Source: a virus
Lineage: Duplodnaviria; Heunggongvirae; Uroviricota; Caudoviricetes
IMG/VR virus record: IMGVR_UViG_2693429508_000005
DNA: 6,632 nucleotides
Reading direction: 5' to 3' (one strand)
Positions 1 through 6,632 of this stretch are shown piece by piece. Both the position numbers and the translations under genes were made by a program. The first letter of the stretch is position 1. Each line of letters starts with the position of its first letter. The notes below the pieces were generated by a model, which saw only the letters and a program-made list of their open reading frames with translations, ran no database searches and was not told where the DNA came from.

Positions 1-606
1 GAAGGAGTGTCCGTTAAACTCAGGCTACCTCAGGATGCGGATAATGCGGCGGGAACGGCAGAACAGATGTTTACAGTGGCATTCAGCAGTGCCGGTAATG
101 CACTGGCGACATTCTGTACCACCGGTAAGCTGAATTTTAAATCCTTCACCTCTTCCCTGTTGTCAGATATGGCCAGAATTATGGCACAGATGGCCATGAT
201 GCAGGCGGTAAAGGGCGTCGGTTCTTTATTCGGCTTCACGACTAATGCTGATGGCGGTGTTTACCAGTCTGCTGATTTGAGTCGCTACAGTGGCACGGTG
301 GTTAACCGTCCGACGTTTTTTGCTTTTGCAAAAGGCGCGGGTGTGATGGGGGAAGCGGGACCTGAAGCCATTCTGCCACTGCGTCGCGGTGCTGATGGTA
401 AGCTGGGGGGTGTGGCGGATACTGGTGGTTCAGGCATGGTGATGTTTGCCCCGCAGTACAACATTGAGATCAATAACGATGGCACGAACGGGCAGATAGG
501 TCCGGCTGCCCTGAAGGTGGTTTATGACCTCGGGAAAAAAGCGGCCGCGGACTTTATGCAACAGCAGGCCCGTGATGGTGGCCGGTTAAGTGGAGCATAC
601 CGGTAA
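1..606 (+). CDS. H: Tail length tape-measure protein, C-terminal part (5'-partial; divergent allele H')
   Basis: Reading frame is open from the window start (the track's GTG at 7 is not the real start) and stops at TAA 604-606. The C-terminus (...NNDGTNGQIGPAALKVVYDLGKKAAADFMQQQARDGGRLSGAYR) is homologous but only about half identical to the lambda-type H C-terminus at 1455-1889 (...QNDGTNGLPGPQMMKAVYDMARKGARDEIQTQMRDGGLFSGGGR). The stop overlaps the start of an M homologue (TAATG), the synteny seen in lambda H-M. Confidence 0.7.
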   Translation, partial: EGVSVKLRLPQDADNAAGTAEQMFTVAFSSAGNALATFCTTGKLNFKSFTSSLLSDMARIMAQMAMMQAVKGVGSLFGFTTNADGGVYQSADLSRYSGTVVNRPTFFAFAKGAGVMGEAGPEAILPLRRGADGKLGGVADTGGSGMVMFAPQYNIEINNDGTNGQIGPAALKVVYDLGKKAAADFMQQQARDGGRLSGAYR

Positions 607-944: not shown

Positions 945-1453
945 ATGCAGGATATTCCACAGGAAACACATCATGAGACGACACGCCTCACTCAGTCAGC
1001 CCAGGTGGTGCTCTGGGAAATCGATCTGACAGAGGTCGGTGGTGAACGTTATTTTTTCTGTAATGAGCAGAACGAAAAAGGTGAGCCGGTTACCTGGCAG
1101 GGGCGGCAGTATCAGGCATACCCCATTCAGGGGACGGGATTTGAACTGAACGGCAAGGGCAGTGCTGCCCGTCCGACACTGACGGTTTCTAACCTGCACG
1201 GAATGGTCACCGGGATGGCGGAAGACCTGCAGAGTCTGGTCGGCGGAACGGTGGTCAGGCGTAAGGTTTACGCCCGTTTTCTGGATGCGGTGAACTTCGT
1301 CAACGGAAACAGCGACGCCGATCCGGAACAGGAGGTGATCAGCCGCTGGCGCATCGAGCAGTGCAGCGAACTGAGCGCGGTCAGTGCCTCTTTTGTGCTG
1401 GCCACACCAACGGAGACGGATGGCGCGGTTTTCCCGGGGCGTATCATGCTGGC
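945..1453 (+). CDS. L: Tail tip protein L, N-terminal fragment (L', about 169 codons), fused in frame to an H C-terminal fragment
   Basis: AGGAGG-like RBS at about 935-940 precedes ATG 945. From about nt 1005 it is roughly 90% identical in nucleotides to the L gene at 2215-3070; the first ~20 codons diverge. Homology to L stops after ...GRIML at 1453, with an ambiguous base n at 1454. Confidence 0.7.
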
Positions 1454-1454
1454 N

Positions 1455-1889
1455 GGGGCTGTTGGTGGCGGCGCATCCGCGTCAGGTGGTACAGCCATTC
1501 AGGCCGCTGCGGCGAAATTCCATTTTGCAACTGGGGGATTTACGGGAACCGGCGGCAAATATGAGCCAGCGGGGATTGTTCACCGTGGTGAATTTGTCTT
1601 CACGAAGGAGGCAACCAGCCGGATTGGCGTGGGGAATCTCTACCGGCTGATGCGCGGCTATGCGGAAGGTGGTTATGTGGGCGGTGCCGGAAGTCCGGCG
1701 CAGATGCGGCGGGCTGAAGGCATTAATTTTAATCAGAACAATCACGTGGTGATTCAGAACGACGGTACGAATGGTCTGCCAGGTCCACAGATGATGAAGG
1801 CCGTGTATGACATGGCCCGCAAGGGTGCCCGTGATGAAATTCAGACACAGATGCGTGATGGTGGCCTGTTCTCCGGAGGTGGACGATGA
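1455..1889 (+). CDS. H: Tail tape-measure protein H, C-terminal fragment (lambda-type, about 144 codons), 3' part of the chimeric ORF 945-1889
   Basis: Ends ...QMRDGGLFSGGGR, matching the lambda gpH C-terminus as I recall it. Stop TGA 1887-1889 overlaps the M start ATG 1886 (ATGA), as in lambda H/M. Gly/Ala-rich segment typical of tape-measure C-termini. Confidence 0.7.
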   Translation, partial: GAVGGGASASGGTAIQAAAAKFHFATGGFTGTGGKYEPAGIVHRGEFVFTKEATSRIGVGNLYRLMRGYAEGGYVGGAGSPAQMRRAEGINFNQNNHVVIQNDGTNGLPGPQMMKAVYDMARKGARDEIQTQMRDGGLFSGGGR

Positions 1890-2215
1890 AAACCTTCCGC
1901 TGGAAAGTGAAACCCGGTATGGATGTGGCTTCGGCCCCTTCTGTAAGAAAGGTGCGCTTTGGTGATGGCTATTCCCAGCGAGCGCCTGCCGGGCTGAATG
2001 CCAACCTGAAAACGTACAGCGTGACGCTTTCTGTCCCCCGTGAGGAGGCCATGGTACTGGAGTCGTTTCTGGAAGAGCACGGGGGCTGGAAAGCCTTTCT
2101 GTGGACGCCGCCTTATGAGTGGCGGCAGATAAAGGTGACCTGCGCAAAATGGTCGTCGCGGGTCAGTATGCTGCGTGTTGAGTTCAGCGCAGAGTTTGAA
2201 CAGGTGGTGAACTGA
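1886..2215 (+). CDS. M: Tail tip assembly protein M (lambda-like)
   Basis: 109-aa ORF MKTFRWKVKPGMDVAS...SAEFEQVVN, essentially identical to lambda gpM as recalled. ATGA overlap with the upstream H stop, and its stop overlaps the L start at 2215. Confidence 0.92.
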   Translation: MKTFRWKVKPGMDVASAPSVRKVRFGDGYSQRAPAGLNANLKTYSVTLSVPREEAMVLESFLEEHGGWKAFLWTPPYEWRQIKVTCAKWSSRVSMLRVEFSAEFEQVVN

Positions 2216-3070
2216 TGCAGGATATCCGGCAGGAAACACTGAATGAATGCACCCGTGCGGAGCAGTCGGCCAGCGTGGTGCTCTGGGAAATCGATCTGAC
2301 AGAGGTCGGTGGAGAACGTTATTTTTTCTGTAATGAGCAGAACGAAAAAGGTGAGCCGGTTACCTGGCAGGGGCGGCAGTATCAGGCNNNNNNNNNNNNN
2401 NNNNNNNNNNNNNNNNNNNNNNNNNNNNNNNNNNNNNNNNNNNNNNNNNNNTCTGACAGAGGTCGGTGGAGAACGTTATTTTTTCTGTAATGAGCAGAAC
2501 GAAAAAGGTGAGCCGGTCACCTGGCAGGGGCGACAGTATCAGCCGTATCCCATTCAGGGGAGTGGTTTTGAACTGAATGGCAAAGGCACCAGTACGCGCC
2601 CCACGCTGATGGTTTCTAACCTGTACGGTATGGTCACCGGGATGGCGGAAGATCTACAGAGTCTGGTCGGCGGAACGGTGGTCCGGCGTAAGGTTTACGC
2701 CCGTTTTCTGGATGCGGTGAACTTCGTCAACGGAAACAGTGACGCCGATCCGGAGCAGGAGGTGATCAGCCGCTGGCGCATTGAGCAGTGCAGCGAACTG
2801 AGCGCGGTGAGTGCCTCTTTTGTACTGTCCACGCCGACGGAAACAGATGGCGCTGTTTTTCCGGGACGTATCATGCTGGCCAACACCTGCACCTGGACCT
2901 ATCGCGGCGATGAGTGCGGTTATCACGGTCCGGCGGTCGCGGATGAATATGACCAGCCAACGTCCGACATCACGAAGGATAAATGCAGCAAATGCCTGAG
3001 TGGCTGTAAGTTTCGCAATAACGTCGGCAACTTTGGCGGCTTCCTTTCCATTAACAAACTTTCGCAGTAA
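2215..3070 (+). CDS. L: Tail tip protein L (lambda-like), interrupted by an N-gap and a redundant 93-bp overlap; intact 232-codon gene if 2215-2385 is joined to 2543-3070
   Basis: N-terminal ORF 2215-2387 (MQDIRQETLNECTRAEQSASVVLWEIDLTEVGGERYFFCNEQNEKGEPVTWQGRQYQ) runs into the N-run. Sequence after the gap repeats the last 93 nt and continues in L frame to TAA 3068-3070. Joining 171 + 528 nt gives 699 nt, which is 232 aa plus stop. C-terminus carries a Cys cluster (CTWTYRGDECGYHG...KDKCSKCLSGC). Confidence 0.85.
2388..2451. other. Assembly gap (64 N)
   Basis: Continuous run of n from 2388 to 2451. Confidence 0.97.
2452..2544. repeat. 93-bp direct duplicate of 2295-2387 flanking the gap (unmerged contig overlap)
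   Basis: 2452-2544 (tctgacagaggtcggtggagaacg...cagtatcagcc) repeats 2295-2387 with 3 mismatches (T/C, G/A and a final G/C). Confidence 0.9.
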
Positions 3071-3075
3071 ATCCC

Positions 3076-3819
3076 ATGACAGAGACAGAATCAGCGATTC
3101 TGGCGCACGCCCGGCGATGTGCTCCAGCGGAGTCGTGCGGCTTCGTGGTAAGAACGCCGGAGGGGGAAAGATATTTCCCCTGCGTGAATATCTCCGGTGA
3201 GCCGGAGGCGTATTTCCGTATGTCGCCGGAAGACTGGCTGCAGGCAGAGATGCAGGGTGAGATTGTGGCACTGGTCCACAGCCACCCCGGTGGTCTGCCC
3301 TGGCTGAGTGAGGCCGACCGGCGGCTGCAGGTGCAGAGTGATTTGCCGTGGTGGCTGGTCTGCCGGGGGGCGATTCACAAGTTCCGCTGTGTGCCACATC
3401 TTACCGGGCGGCGCTTTGAGCACGGGGTGACGGACTGTTACACGCTGTTCCGGGATGCTTACCATCTGGCGGGGATTGAGATGCCGGATTTTCATCGTGA
3501 GGATGACTGGTGGCGTCACGGTCAGAATCTCTATCTGGATAATCTGGAGGCCACAGGGCTGTATCAGGTGCCGTTGTCAGCGGCGCAGCCGGGCGATGTG
3601 CTGCTGTGCTGTTTTGGTTCATCGGTGCCGAATCATGCCGCCATTTACTGTGGTGACGGCGAGCTGCTGCACCATATTCCTGAACAACTGAGCAAACGAG
3701 AGAGGTATACCGACAAATGGCAGCGACGCACACACTCCCTCTGGCGTCACCGGGCATGGCACGCATCTGCCTTTACGGGGATTTGCAACGATTTGGCCGC
3801 CGCATCGACCTTCGTGTGA
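3076..3819 (+). CDS. K: Tail tip assembly protein K (MPN/JAMM plus NlpC/P60-like), long form of 247 aa; the classical lambda-type start would be the in-frame ATG at 3220
   Basis: ORF MTETESAILAHARRCAPAESCGFVV... is open from the ATG 6 nt after the L stop. It contains the JAMM signature H-x-H-x7-S-x2-D (HSHPGGLPWLSEAD) and a Cys...His pair (GVTDCYTLF ... NHAAIY) compatible with an NlpC/P60 fold. The last 103 nt overlap I, as in lambda K/I. Confidence 0.85.
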   Translation: MTETESAILAHARRCAPAESCGFVVRTPEGERYFPCVNISGEPEAYFRMSPEDWLQAEMQGEIVALVHSHPGGLPWLSEADRRLQVQSDLPWWLVCRGAIHKFRCVPHLTGRRFEHGVTDCYTLFRDAYHLAGIEMPDFHREDDWWRHGQNLYLDNLEATGLYQVPLSAAQPGDVLLCCFGSSVPNHAAIYCGDGELLHHIPEQLSKRERYTDKWQRRTHSLWRHRAWHASAFTGICNDLAAASTFV

Positions 3820-4388
3820 AAACGGGTGCCGAAGCCATCCGGGCGATGGCCACACAGCTCCCTGCGTTTCGTCAGAAGCTGAGCGACGGCTGGTATCAGG
3901 TGCGTATTGCCGGGCAGGATGTTAGCACGTCCGGATTAACGGCGCAGTTACATGAGGCTCTGCCTGACGGCGCTGTGATTCATATTGTTCCCAGAGTCGC
4001 CGGGGCCAAGTCAGGTGGTGTATTCCAGATTGTCCTGGGAGCAGCCGCCATTGCCGGATCATTCTTTACCGCCGGAGCCACCCTTGCAGCATGGGGGGCT
4101 GCCATTGGTGCCGGTGGTATGACCGGCATTCTGTTTTCTCTCGGTGCCAGTATGGTGCTCGGCGGTGTGGCTCAGATGCTGGCACCGAAAGCCAGAACTC
4201 CCCGCACACAGACAACGGATAACGGTAAGCAGAACACCTATTTCTCCTCACTGGATAACATGGTTGCCCAGGGCAATGTTATGCCTGTTCTGTATGGTGA
4301 AATGCGCGTGGGGTCACGTGTGGTATCTCAGGAGATCAGCACGGCAGACGAAGGGGACGGTGGTCAGGTTGTGGTGATTGGTCGCTGA
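3717..4388 (+). CDS. I: Tail tip assembly protein I
   Basis: 223-aa ORF MAATHTLPLASPGMARICLYGDLQRFGRRIDLRVKTG...VVVIGR, essentially identical to lambda gpI as recalled. Overlaps the 3' end of K in a different frame. Contains a long Gly/Ala-rich hydrophobic segment. Confidence 0.92.
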   Translation: MAATHTLPLASPGMARICLYGDLQRFGRRIDLRVKTGAEAIRAMATQLPAFRQKLSDGWYQVRIAGQDVSTSGLTAQLHEALPDGAVIHIVPRVAGAKSGGVFQIVLGAAAIAGSFFTAGATLAAWGAAIGAGGMTGILFSLGASMVLGGVAQMLAPKARTPRTQTTDNGKQNTYFSSLDNMVAQGNVMPVLYGEMRVGSRVVSQEISTADEGDGGQVVVIGR

Positions 4389-4410
4389 TGCAAAATGTTT
4401 TATGTGAAAT

Positions 4411-4427
4411 CGCCTCCGGGCGGTTTT
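4411..4427 (+). terminator. Small GC hairpin followed by TTTT in the I-J intergenic spacer (possible weak terminator or attenuator)
   Basis: CGCC-TCCG-GGCG (4-bp stem, 4-nt loop) at 4411-4422, followed by GTTTT. Lies between the I stop (4386-4388) and the J RBS (GGAG at 4437-4440). Confidence 0.2.
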
Positions 4428-4448
4428 ATCGTTTATGGAGCATGACGA

Positions 4449-6632
4449 ATGGGTAAAGGCAGCAGTAAGGGGCATACCCCGCGCGAAGCGAAGGACAACC
4501 TGAAATCCACGCAGTTGCTGAGTGTGATTGATGCCATCAGCGAAGGGCCGGTTGAAGGTCCGGTGGATGGATTAAAAAGCGTGCTGCTGAACAGTACGCC
4601 GGTGCTGGACAGTGAGGGGAATACCAACATCTCCGGCGTCACGGTGGTGTTCCGGGCAGGTGAGCAGGAGCAGTCACCGCCGGAGGGATTTGAATCCTCC
4701 GGCTCCGAGACGGTGCTGGGTACGGAAGTGAAATATGACACGCCGATCACCCGGACCATCACGTCGGCAAACATTGACCGACTGCGTTTTACCTTCGGTG
4801 TACAGGCACTGGTGGAAACCACCTCAAAGGGAGACAGGAATCCGTCTGAAGTTCGCCTGCTGGTTCAGATACAGCGTAACGGTGGCTGGGTGACGGAAAA
4901 AGACATCACCATTAAGGGCAAAACCACCTCGCAGTATCTGGCCTCGGTGGTGGTGGATAACCTGCCGCCGCGCCCGTTTAATATCCGGATGCGCAGAATG
5001 ACGCCGGACAGCACCACAGACCAGCTGCAGAACAAAACGCTCTGGTCGTCATACACCGAAATCATCGATGTGAAACAGTGCTACCCGAACACGGCACTGG
5101 TCGGCGTACAGGTGGATTCGGAGCAGTTCGGCAGCCAGCAGGTGAGCCGTAATTATCATCTTCGCGGGCGCATTCTGCAGGTGCCGTCGAACTATAATCC
5201 GCAGACGCGGCAATACAGCGGTATCTGGGACGGAACGTTAAAACCGGCATACAGCAACAACATGGCCTGGTGTCTGTGGGATATGCTGACCCATCCGCGC
5301 TATGGCATGGGGAAACGTCTTGGTGCGGCAGATGTGGATAAATGGGCGCTGTATGTCATCGGCCAGTACTGTGACCAGTCGGTGCCGGACGGCTTTGGCA
5401 GCACGGAGCCGCGCATCACCTGTAATGCCTGGCTGACCACACAGCGCAAGGCGTGGGATGTGCTCAGTGATTTCTGCTCGGCGATGCGCTGTATGCCGGT
5501 ATGGAACGGGCAGACGCTGACGTTCGTGCAGGACCGACAGTCGGATAAGGTGTGGGCCTATAACCGCAGTAATGTGGTGATGCCGGATGATGGCGCGCCG
5601 TTCCGCTACAGTTTCAGCGCCCTGAAAGACCGCCATAATGCCGTTGAGGTGAACTGGATTGACCCGGATAACGGCTGGGAGACGGCGACAGAGCTTGTGG
5701 AGGATACGCAGGCCATTGTCCGTTACGGTCGTAACGTCACGAAGATGGATGCCTTTGGCTGTACCAGCCGGGGGCAGGCACACCGAGCCGGGCTGTGGCT
5801 GATTAAAACGGAACTGCTGGAGACGCAGACCGTGGATTTCAGCGTGGGTGCTGAAGGGCTTCGTCATGTACCGGGCGATGTCATTGAAATCTGCGATGAT
5901 GACTATGCCGGTATCCGCACCGGCGGGCGCGTGCTGGCGGTGAACAGCCAGACCCGGACGCTGACGCTCGACCGTGAAATCACGCTGCCATCCTCCGGCA
6001 CCACGCTGATAAGCCTGGTTGACGGGCAGGGGAATCCGGTCAGCGTGGAGGTCCAGTCCGTCACCGACGGCGTGAAGGTAAAAGTGAGCCGTGTTCCTGA
6101 CGGTGTTGCTGAATACAGCGTGTGGGGGCTGAAGCTGCCGACGCTGCACCAGCGATTGTTCCGCTGCGTGAGTATCCGTGAGAACGACGACGGCACGTAT
6201 GCCATCACCGCCGTGCAGCATGTGCCGGAAAAAGAAGCCATCGTGGATAACGGGGCGCACTTTGACGGCGACCAGAGCGGCACGGTGAATGGTGTCACGC
6301 CGCCAGCGGTGCAGCACCTGACTGCCGAAGTCACCGCAGACAGCGGGGAATATCAGGTGCTGGCGCGCTGGGACACGCCGAAGGTGGTGAAGGGCGTGAG
6401 CTTCCTGCTCCGTCTGACCGTAACAGCGGATGACGGCAGTGAGCGGCTGGTCAGCACGGCCCGGACGACGGAAACCACTTACCGCTTCACACAACTGGCG
6501 CTGGGGAACTACAGGCTGACAGTCCGGGCAGTAAATGCGTGGGGGCAGCAGGGCGATCCGGCGTCGGTATCGTTCCGGATTGCCGCACCGGCAGCGCTGT
6601 CGCGGATTGAGCTGACGCCGGGCTATTTTCAG
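4449..6632 (+). CDS. J: Tail tip attachment / host specificity protein J, N-terminal 728 codons (3'-partial, runs off the window)
   Basis: ATG 4449 preceded by GGAG 9-12 nt upstream. Open frame to the window end, MGKGSSKGHTPREAKDNLKSTQLLSVIDAISEGPVEGPVDGLKSVLLNSTPVLD..., highly similar to lambda gpJ as recalled. Not in the ORF track because it has no stop within the window. Confidence 0.93.
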   Translation, partial: MGKGSSKGHTPREAKDNLKSTQLLSVIDAISEGPVEGPVDGLKSVLLNSTPVLDSEGNTNISGVTVVFRAGEQEQSPPEGFESSGSETVLGTEVKYDTPITRTITSANIDRLRFTFGVQALVETTSKGDRNPSEVRLLVQIQRNGGWVTEKDITIKGKTTSQYLASVVVDNLPPRPFNIRMRRMTPDSTTDQLQNKTLWSSYTEIIDVKQCYPNTALVGVQVDSEQFGSQQVSRNYHLRGRILQVPSNYNPQTRQYSGIWDGTLKPAYSNNMAWCLWDMLTHPRYGMGKRLGAADVDKWALYVIGQYCDQSVPDGFGSTEPRITCNAWLTTQRKAWDVLSDFCSAMRCMPVWNGQTLTFVQDRQSDKVWAYNRSNVVMPDDGAPFRYSFSALKDRHNAVEVNWIDPDNGWETATELVEDTQAIVRYGRNVTKMDAFGCTSRGQAHRAGLWLIKTELLETQTVDFSVGAEGLRHVPGDVIEICDDDYAGIRTGGRVLAVNSQTRTLTLDREITLPSSGTTLISLVDGQGNPVSVEVQSVTDGVKVKVSRVPDGVAEYSVWGLKLPTLHQRLFRCVSIRENDDGTYAITAVQHVPEKEAIVDNGAHFDGDQSGTVNGVTPPAVQHLTAEVTADSGEYQVLARWDTPKVVKGVSFLLRLTVTADDGSERLVSTARTTETTYRFTQLALGNYRLTVRAVNAWGQQGDPASVSFRIAAPAALSRIELTPGYFQ

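Follow-up and report, generated by a model that had tools for sequence, protein, structure and literature searches.

The open reading frame (ORF) at positions 945–1889 of the window, by which we mean the whole 6,632 nt stretch of viral DNA that was analysed, raises the question of whether part of a lambda-like tail-tip gene (L') has genuinely been joined to the end of a tape-measure gene (H), or whether two prophage fragments were merely placed end to end during assembly. Sequence comparison leaves us highly confident that the L'-H ‘fusion’ is an artefact of scaffolding and gap filling in a short-read draft of Shigella sonnei, rather than a real feature. The apparent tandem duplication of H'-M'-L' and H-M-L is almost certainly an artefact of scaffolding across paralogous prophage tail modules.

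The window is made up of three contigs, A (1–1453), B1 (1455–2387) and B2 (2452–6632), and its complete list of N runs consists of one base at 1454 and 64 bases at 2388–2451. We refer to the prophage type with H'-M'-L', which is disrupted by an insertion sequence (IS), as P1, to the type with H-M-L-K-I-J as P2 and to a third copy as P3. The features are as follows.

1–32, no strand: terminal 32 nt of an IS3-family element, at the left end of the scaffold, interrupting the P1 tape-measure gene
33–606, + strand: C-terminal part of H', P1 (Pfam Tape_meas_lam_C, E 1e-19); 100 % identical to loci L039, L040, L041 and L042
606–935, + strand: M' (tail-tip protein M), P1, complete (Pfam Phage_min_tail, E 1.8e-39, full length)
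945–1453, + strand: first 169 codons of L' plus 2 nt, P1, at the right end of contig A (Pfam Phage_tail_L)
1454, no strand: single n, placeholder for the unresolved join between contigs A and B1
1455–1889, + strand: last 144 codons of H plus stop, P2, at the left end of contig B1 (assigned by identity to CP104423.1 and CP026802.1)
1886–2215, + strand: M, P2, complete (Pfam Phage_min_tail, E 7e-40); the exact protein is widespread
2215–2387, + strand: 5' part of L, P2, at the right end of contig B1; the last ~27–75 nt carry P1 alleles
2388–2451, no strand: 64-N scaffold gap, hiding a false 93-nt duplication
2452–3070, + strand: remainder of L, P2, contig B2 (Pfam Phage_tail_L, profile 1–206 of 206, E 7e-101)
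3076–3819, + strand: K, P2 (JAB/MPN and NlpC/P60 domains, Pfam)
3816–4388, + strand: I (tail assembly protein I), P2 (Pfam Lambda_tail_I); 190 aa in the source record
4449–6632, + strand: N-terminal 728 codons of J, P2, cut at the scaffold end (Pfam FNIII-A_GpJ, Phage-tail_3 and Ig_J)

The Pfam search supported every gene assignment in the window and the order H-M-L-K-I-J, so that both gene order and all Pfam families agree with the module of phage lambda. The window differs from lambda in holding one and a half modules, which it does only through the concatenation of two prophage copies. The H'-M'-L' and H-M-L copies are ~75–96 % identical and repeat at spacings of 1270 and 1280 nt, which bears out the tandem partial modules with a period of about 1270–1280 bp put forward in a preliminary description of this DNA. 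That description started the first module at position 1; the module itself stands, but H' begins at 33, and 1–32 is the end of the IS. Taken alone, the P1 and P2 tail modules are each ordinary.

The chimeric ORF encodes 314 aa, comprising 169 codons of L', a 170th codon GCn (1452–1454) that specifies Ala for any base, and 144 codons (1455–1886) of a lambda-type tape-measure C-terminus with the final residues LFSGGGR. Residues 1–169 matched Phage_tail_L (PF05100) over profile positions 1–141 of 206 (E 5e-66). The ORF did not yield a full-length match to this family, as the C-terminal Cys-rich third is absent, and the C-terminal ...NTCTWTYRGDECGY... of the window's other L is replaced by tape-measure sequence. 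The segment 1455–1889 had no Pfam match because this piece lies downstream of the Tape_meas_lam_C domain, and it was assigned to the lambda-family H by the identity of its C-terminus to annotated H. Over 1450–1653 its identity to the phage records of Escherichia virus Lambda_4C10 and relatives is 98.5 %, and after the n the H genes of finished chromosomes agree with it at 99.5 %. The composition first proposed, an L' N-terminus, n and an H C-terminus, is thus confirmed by the ORF, Pfam and H identity, and the native L' and H sequences agree with the earlier observation that the join connects non-homologous positions of two genes, running from the interior of L' to the interior of H.

The window is identical end to end to scaffold CXDS01000189.1 (6,632 nt) of assembly GCA_001259615.1, a draft S. 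sonnei genome. The chimera, queried with GCn as Ala, had one exact match, the protein cluster P0001, which is named ‘Minor tail protein [Shigella sonnei]’ in NCBI nr and holds 1 member sequence on 1 contig, namely CXDS01000189.1; the ORF translated with X gave no exact look-up match, the Ala version being the nr entry. At the left end of the scaffold, native H' is wholly different across positions 1–32, and the 32-mer is multi-copy, occurring in 3,143 of 5,426 E. coli genomes at up to 43 places per genome. The finished genome CP179997.1 carries an IS3-family element of 1,264 bp in H' (L040 5164–6427), with a 3-bp target duplication and an exact match to window 1–32; this length would fit IS600. 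The IS/H' junction at 32/33 is real, unlike the join at 1454, and represents a strain-specific marker common to CP179997.1 and the window.

If the join is false, each flank should have its own native continuation elsewhere. The misjoin reading predicts that, in reads of the isolate, the H sequence GGGGCTGTTGGTGG is found behind native ...GCGCCATTGGC, and that L' runs into GAATACCTGTATG. For the left flank, CP179997.1, which contains no Ns, is identical to the window at 1453 of 1453 positions over 1–1453, IS junction included. Past ...ATCATGCTGGC (1453) it continues with GAATACCTGTATGTGG..., a normal L C-terminus, and the native continuation of L' after 1453 in this genome is GAATACCTGT.... L' is complete there (232 aa), and K', I', J' and Lom lie downstream of it. 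The exact M' protein was found on two finished chromosomes, CP179997.1 and CP180280.1, in the order M'-L'-K'-I'-J'-Lom, and the same native behaviour was seen in CP180280.1 and in the draft loci L042 and L044–L048. A 35-mer ending at 1453 was found at 30 further loci, 29 of them on IMG/VR contigs and one on a chromosome of S. flexneri, and in all 30 it was followed by the native continuation (GAATACCTGTATGTGG).

The right flank is equally ordinary in finished genomes. CP104423.1 and CP026802.1 are 99.5 % identical to the window over 1450–2385 and 99.9 % over 2452–6632. In both, the H end closes a full-length H, intact or split, that of CP104423.1 having 853 aa, with head genes and the full-length H upstream and a contiguous 232-aa L downstream; native H before the breakpoint reads ...GCCATTGGC. 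Each flank therefore has its own collinear continuation in finished genomes, which supports a misjoin. In the finished relatives, >6 kb of P1 genes follow L' 1453 and >6.5 kb of P2 head and tail genes precede H, and the two ends are therefore not neighbours at short-insert distance. L' 1453 and H 1455 would thus lie >12 kb apart even with adjacent prophages.

In the collections searched, the junction was not found outside this scaffold. A 399-nt query centred on n was searched against 5,426 finished E. coli genomes, of which 4,328 matched one half or the other; both halves lay within reach of each other in only three, and a collinear L-to-H join was found in none of the 5,426. These three genomes were rejected as junction carriers, as the order is H then L and the loci are base-resolved deletion scars annotated as pseudogenes. 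The scars lie in NZ_CP148445.1 (L001 6328–6331), NZ_CP104509.1 (L002) and NZ_CP025840.1 (L003), in each of which a truncated tape-measure gene is fused to a 5'-truncated L; NZ_CP148445.1 and NZ_CP104509.1, from poultry isolates from South Korea and the USA, share an identical scar locus. These deletion scars in decaying E. coli prophages resemble the window in that the same two genes are fused at non-homologous positions, but they differ in being base-resolved, in standing in finished genomes, in having the order H then L, which denotes deletion and not duplication, and in having other breakpoints. An L-to-H join was likewise not found in 50,697 phage records, and contig collections of genomes, viruses and metagenomes held 0 matches to a degenerate exact join pattern. 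Of 5.8 billion protein clusters, only two extend over both sides of the join, P0001 and P0002, the latter from a related scaffold described below. The junction is absent from the independent assemblies searched, the chimeric protein is a singleton, and no base-resolved junction was found in close relatives or independent assemblies, the relatives reading natively through 1453.

One phage record required separate inspection. ON470602.1 (L037), the partial genome of Escherichia phage vB_EcoS-885R8, is annotated H-H-M-L-H-M-L over 1291–4245, and has four N runs (2602–2611, 2848–2881, 4222–4231 and 4858–4867), two of which are spanned by its L-to-H transition. It was rejected as a junction carrier, as N runs lie between its L and H, and its H-M-L repeat probably arose through scaffolding of the kind seen in the window. 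A partial tape-measure protein from a 3,831-nt E. coli contig (P0017) has an internal tandem repeat of ~100 residues (AMLTGAEADW...KEATSRIG twice), which could reflect either real variation in tape-measure length or one more false duplication.

Sister scaffolds of the same accession series showed how variable such joins are. This S. sonnei lineage carries no fewer than three lambdoid tail modules, P1, P2 and P3, the last of which was seen in a sister strain. The closest scaffold, CXDB01000145.1 (L012, of which L043 is an identical copy), agrees with the window's three parts at 99.93 %, 99.57 % and 99.86 %, and its J stops at the same base as that of the window. Its P1 module continues through 1453 for a further 880 nt to the end of K', where a single N follows. 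In CXAQ01000042.1 (L056), three tail modules are chained with three single Ns. The single-N joins in related scaffolds, with coordinates to the right of the stroke given as window-equivalents, are as follows.

CXDB01000145.1: K' 3760 / H 1470
CXAQ01000042.1, join 1: P3 L 2907 / H ~1400, yielding a 341-aa chimera (P0002)
CXAQ01000042.1, join 2: L 3015 / L 2846, the ends overlapping by 170 nt with 6 mismatches
CXAQ01000042.1, join 3: J 4718 / IS
Locus L034: I' 4150 / H ~1400
Locus L032: K' 3460 / L 2658

Together with the single n of the window, for which an uncalled base stands exactly at the junction, there are seven single-N sites, and their coordinates are all different. Each of the other six is either a non-collinear join or a pair of overlapping ends that were left unmerged. 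The breakpoint thus varies among near-identical genomes and always coincides with N; a join that moves between strains, always at an uncalled base, does not behave as a real rearrangement would. The L/L join of CXAQ01000042.1 gives rise to P0020, a 289-aa ‘L’ with a false internal duplication of 57 residues. Both P0002 (L056 10001–11026) and P0020 (L056 11352–12221) are named ‘phage minor tail protein L [Shigella sonnei]’ in nr.

These observations bear upon the possibility, raised in the preliminary description as an alternative, that illegitimate recombination left a genuine scar with a duplicated tail-tip module. In such a scar, L' of one prophage would be joined at TGGC to the H C-terminus of another, giving tandem partial H'-M'-L' and H-M-L modules, the n being a poorly called base. 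The motif is indeed common to L' (...CTGGC) and native H (...TTGGC GGGGCT) at the join, the ORF as written keeps its frame, S. sonnei prophages are decaying, to judge from the IS in H', and the real H-to-L deletion scars in finished E. coli prophages indicate that rearrangements of this region are possible. However, a TGGC-mediated join would read TGGCGGGGCT, which is out of frame; on our reading of the sequence, the n adds one base to what such a join would contain. The chance of being in frame is 1 in 3, and the fusion is in frame only if n represents exactly one real base. The base after TGGC is G in both parents, native L' and native H, and should have been callable; the idea that n marks the first disagreement between the parents (C in the window's own L and G in H) was rejected, as native L', the correct parent allele, has G. 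A base-resolved copy of the junction was present in none of the searched collections, CP179997.1 has an intact L' despite sharing the IS junction and every base up to 1453, the closest sister scaffold passes through 1453 to its own single-N join 880 nt later, and the scaffold holds another artefact of this class at a distance of 934 nt. A genuine scar, which is without support in the searched genomes and contig collections, is in our view very improbable. The fuller proposition, that the isolate truly carries an L'-H fusion formed by microhomology recombination, with a duplicated partial module and an expressed chimeric protein, appears extremely improbable from the sequences compared.

A different reading accepts the order of the contigs and questions only the size of the gap, such that P1 and P2 would be true chromosomal neighbours and the n would stand for a missing stretch. 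This could account for the appearance of a P1- or P3-type module directly before the P2 H C-terminus in three or four related scaffolds, although that recurrent H start is accounted for by an exact repeat of 262 nt described below. In CP179997.1 and CP180280.1, P1 runs past Lom to a Mu-like transposase without P2 head genes, and CXAQ01000042.1 has the opposite order, with P1 placed after P2. With >6.5 kb before the P2 H, a true link between 1453 and 1455 is beyond the reach of short-insert pairs, and we would give true adjacency with a mis-sized gap scarcely any credence. A misjoin remains the preferred explanation, as the preliminary description had anticipated: the native flanks, the absence of the junction elsewhere and the variable single Ns agree with it, with the addition that this lineage involves three or more lambdoid tail modules and not two. 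Its use of the n at the breakpoint and of the N gap 900 bp further on as marks of misjoining was likewise sound, with the amendment that the gap consists of overlapping ends, of 93 nt.

The contig ends fall in shared sequence on the H side, but not plainly on the L' side. The P2 and P3 H genes share a 262-nt exact repeat at window-equivalent 1224–1485, and all four H-side contig starts (~1400, ~1400, 1455 and 1470) lie within it. Across H-M-L, P2 and P3 are identical in runs of 262, 175, 152, 115, 90 and 83 nt (L056 7102–10536 compared with L049 4443–8028), a mosaic that, judged from sequence, is a guarantee of short-read assembly trouble. The L' side is less straightforward. Between L' of P1 and P3 there is an exact run of 97 nt at 1258–1354, ending 99 nt before the join, with shorter runs to 1381, and at the breakpoint itself only 14 nt are common to P2 or P3. 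The L' breakpoint at 1453 therefore lies 72–99 nt past the nearest long repeat, and its position requires that greedy extension be assumed.

The 64-N gap was found to be an event of similar character. Its flanks (window 2295–2544) overlap by 93 nt with 3 mismatches, and L012 and the finished chromosomes are contiguous at this point, L049 7500 being the counterpart of window 2385 and L049 7410 that of window 2452. As the positions of window 2385 and 2452 are reversed in finished genomes, the gap marks some 91–93 nt of false duplication and not missing sequence. When 2215–2387 is merged with 2452–3070, a normal contiguous L of 699 nt is obtained. Contig B1 carries P2 alleles at 2268–2274 and P1 alleles at 2361, 2376 and 2386, with the switch inside a 47-nt exact P1/P2 repeat, and it was because of this P2-to-P1 allele switch that the end of B1 could not be merged with B2.

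We propose that the window arose as follows. The S. sonnei genome contains several lambda-like prophages whose tail genes have long exact stretches in common, and contigs would break at or near these tail-gene repeats. The scaffolder would then have joined the P1 contig (1–1453) to the P2 contig (1455–2387) on the basis of misleading read pairs in shared sequence. As the ends were not true neighbours, the gap between P1 and P2 could not be closed; it was presumably filled from both sides until one N was left, and a single n would remain. The 64-N gap would reflect the same kind of event, in which one L end was extended along the wrong prophage copy and the 93-nt overlap was left unmerged.

That such tools leave one N for an unclosable gap is, in our data, an empirical pattern in seven sites. 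A statement that SSPACE or GapFiller leave one N for unclosable or negative gaps was not found in PMC3446322, PMC5596377 or PMC6733440. The Sanger high-throughput pipeline of Velvet, SSPACE and GapFiller, as applied to 299 S. sonnei assemblies with a mean of 405 contigs, is described by Page et al. 2016 (PMC5320598), who note that such greedy tools ‘can lead to false joins’. The accessible part of the supplement to that paper lists S. sonnei accessions with the neighbouring prefixes CWZ*, CXAA and CXAC; the accession of the window (prefix CXDS) was not found in the literature or in that part of the supplement. For this accession we infer both the pipeline (Velvet, SSPACE and GapFiller) and the precise order in which events took place. 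Gap edges are lengthened greedily by GapFiller in single-base steps with default k-mers of 30 nt, and a gap is closed only where the extensions overlap and agree with the estimated size (PMC3446322). The 47-nt exact repeat exceeds the 30-nt k-mer and is therefore enough for a GapFiller extension to hop between copies.

The window is similar to the false joins made by greedy scaffolders at near-identical repeats (SSPACE/GapFiller, PMC5320598), in that diverged copies are placed in series with uncalled bases between them, the H-side breakpoints lie within an exact repeat between copies, that of L' lies 72–99 nt past one, and the join differs among near-identical genomes. Comparison may also be made with false duplication in another setting. 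In diploid assemblies, false duplication arises when two haplotypes are placed in series. The copies in the window differ from this in being paralogous prophages in a haploid genome and not haplotypes.

The chimeric ORF has no biological import and represents no new gene or mechanism. It does, however, stand in NCBI nr as an ordinary ‘minor tail protein L’ entry, together with at least two similar products (P0002 and P0020). A lone N in such scaffolds should be treated as a boundary between contigs, with a size that is unknown or negative, and not as an ambiguous base, and gene fusions or tandem duplications that span a lone N in such scaffolds should be discarded.

A further gene call in this region deserves mention. 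A 418-aa antisense ORF (window 5238–6494, − strand) lies entirely within J and has no Pfam match; it is present as a gene call in both the source record and the sister scaffold, and is most likely a spurious call.
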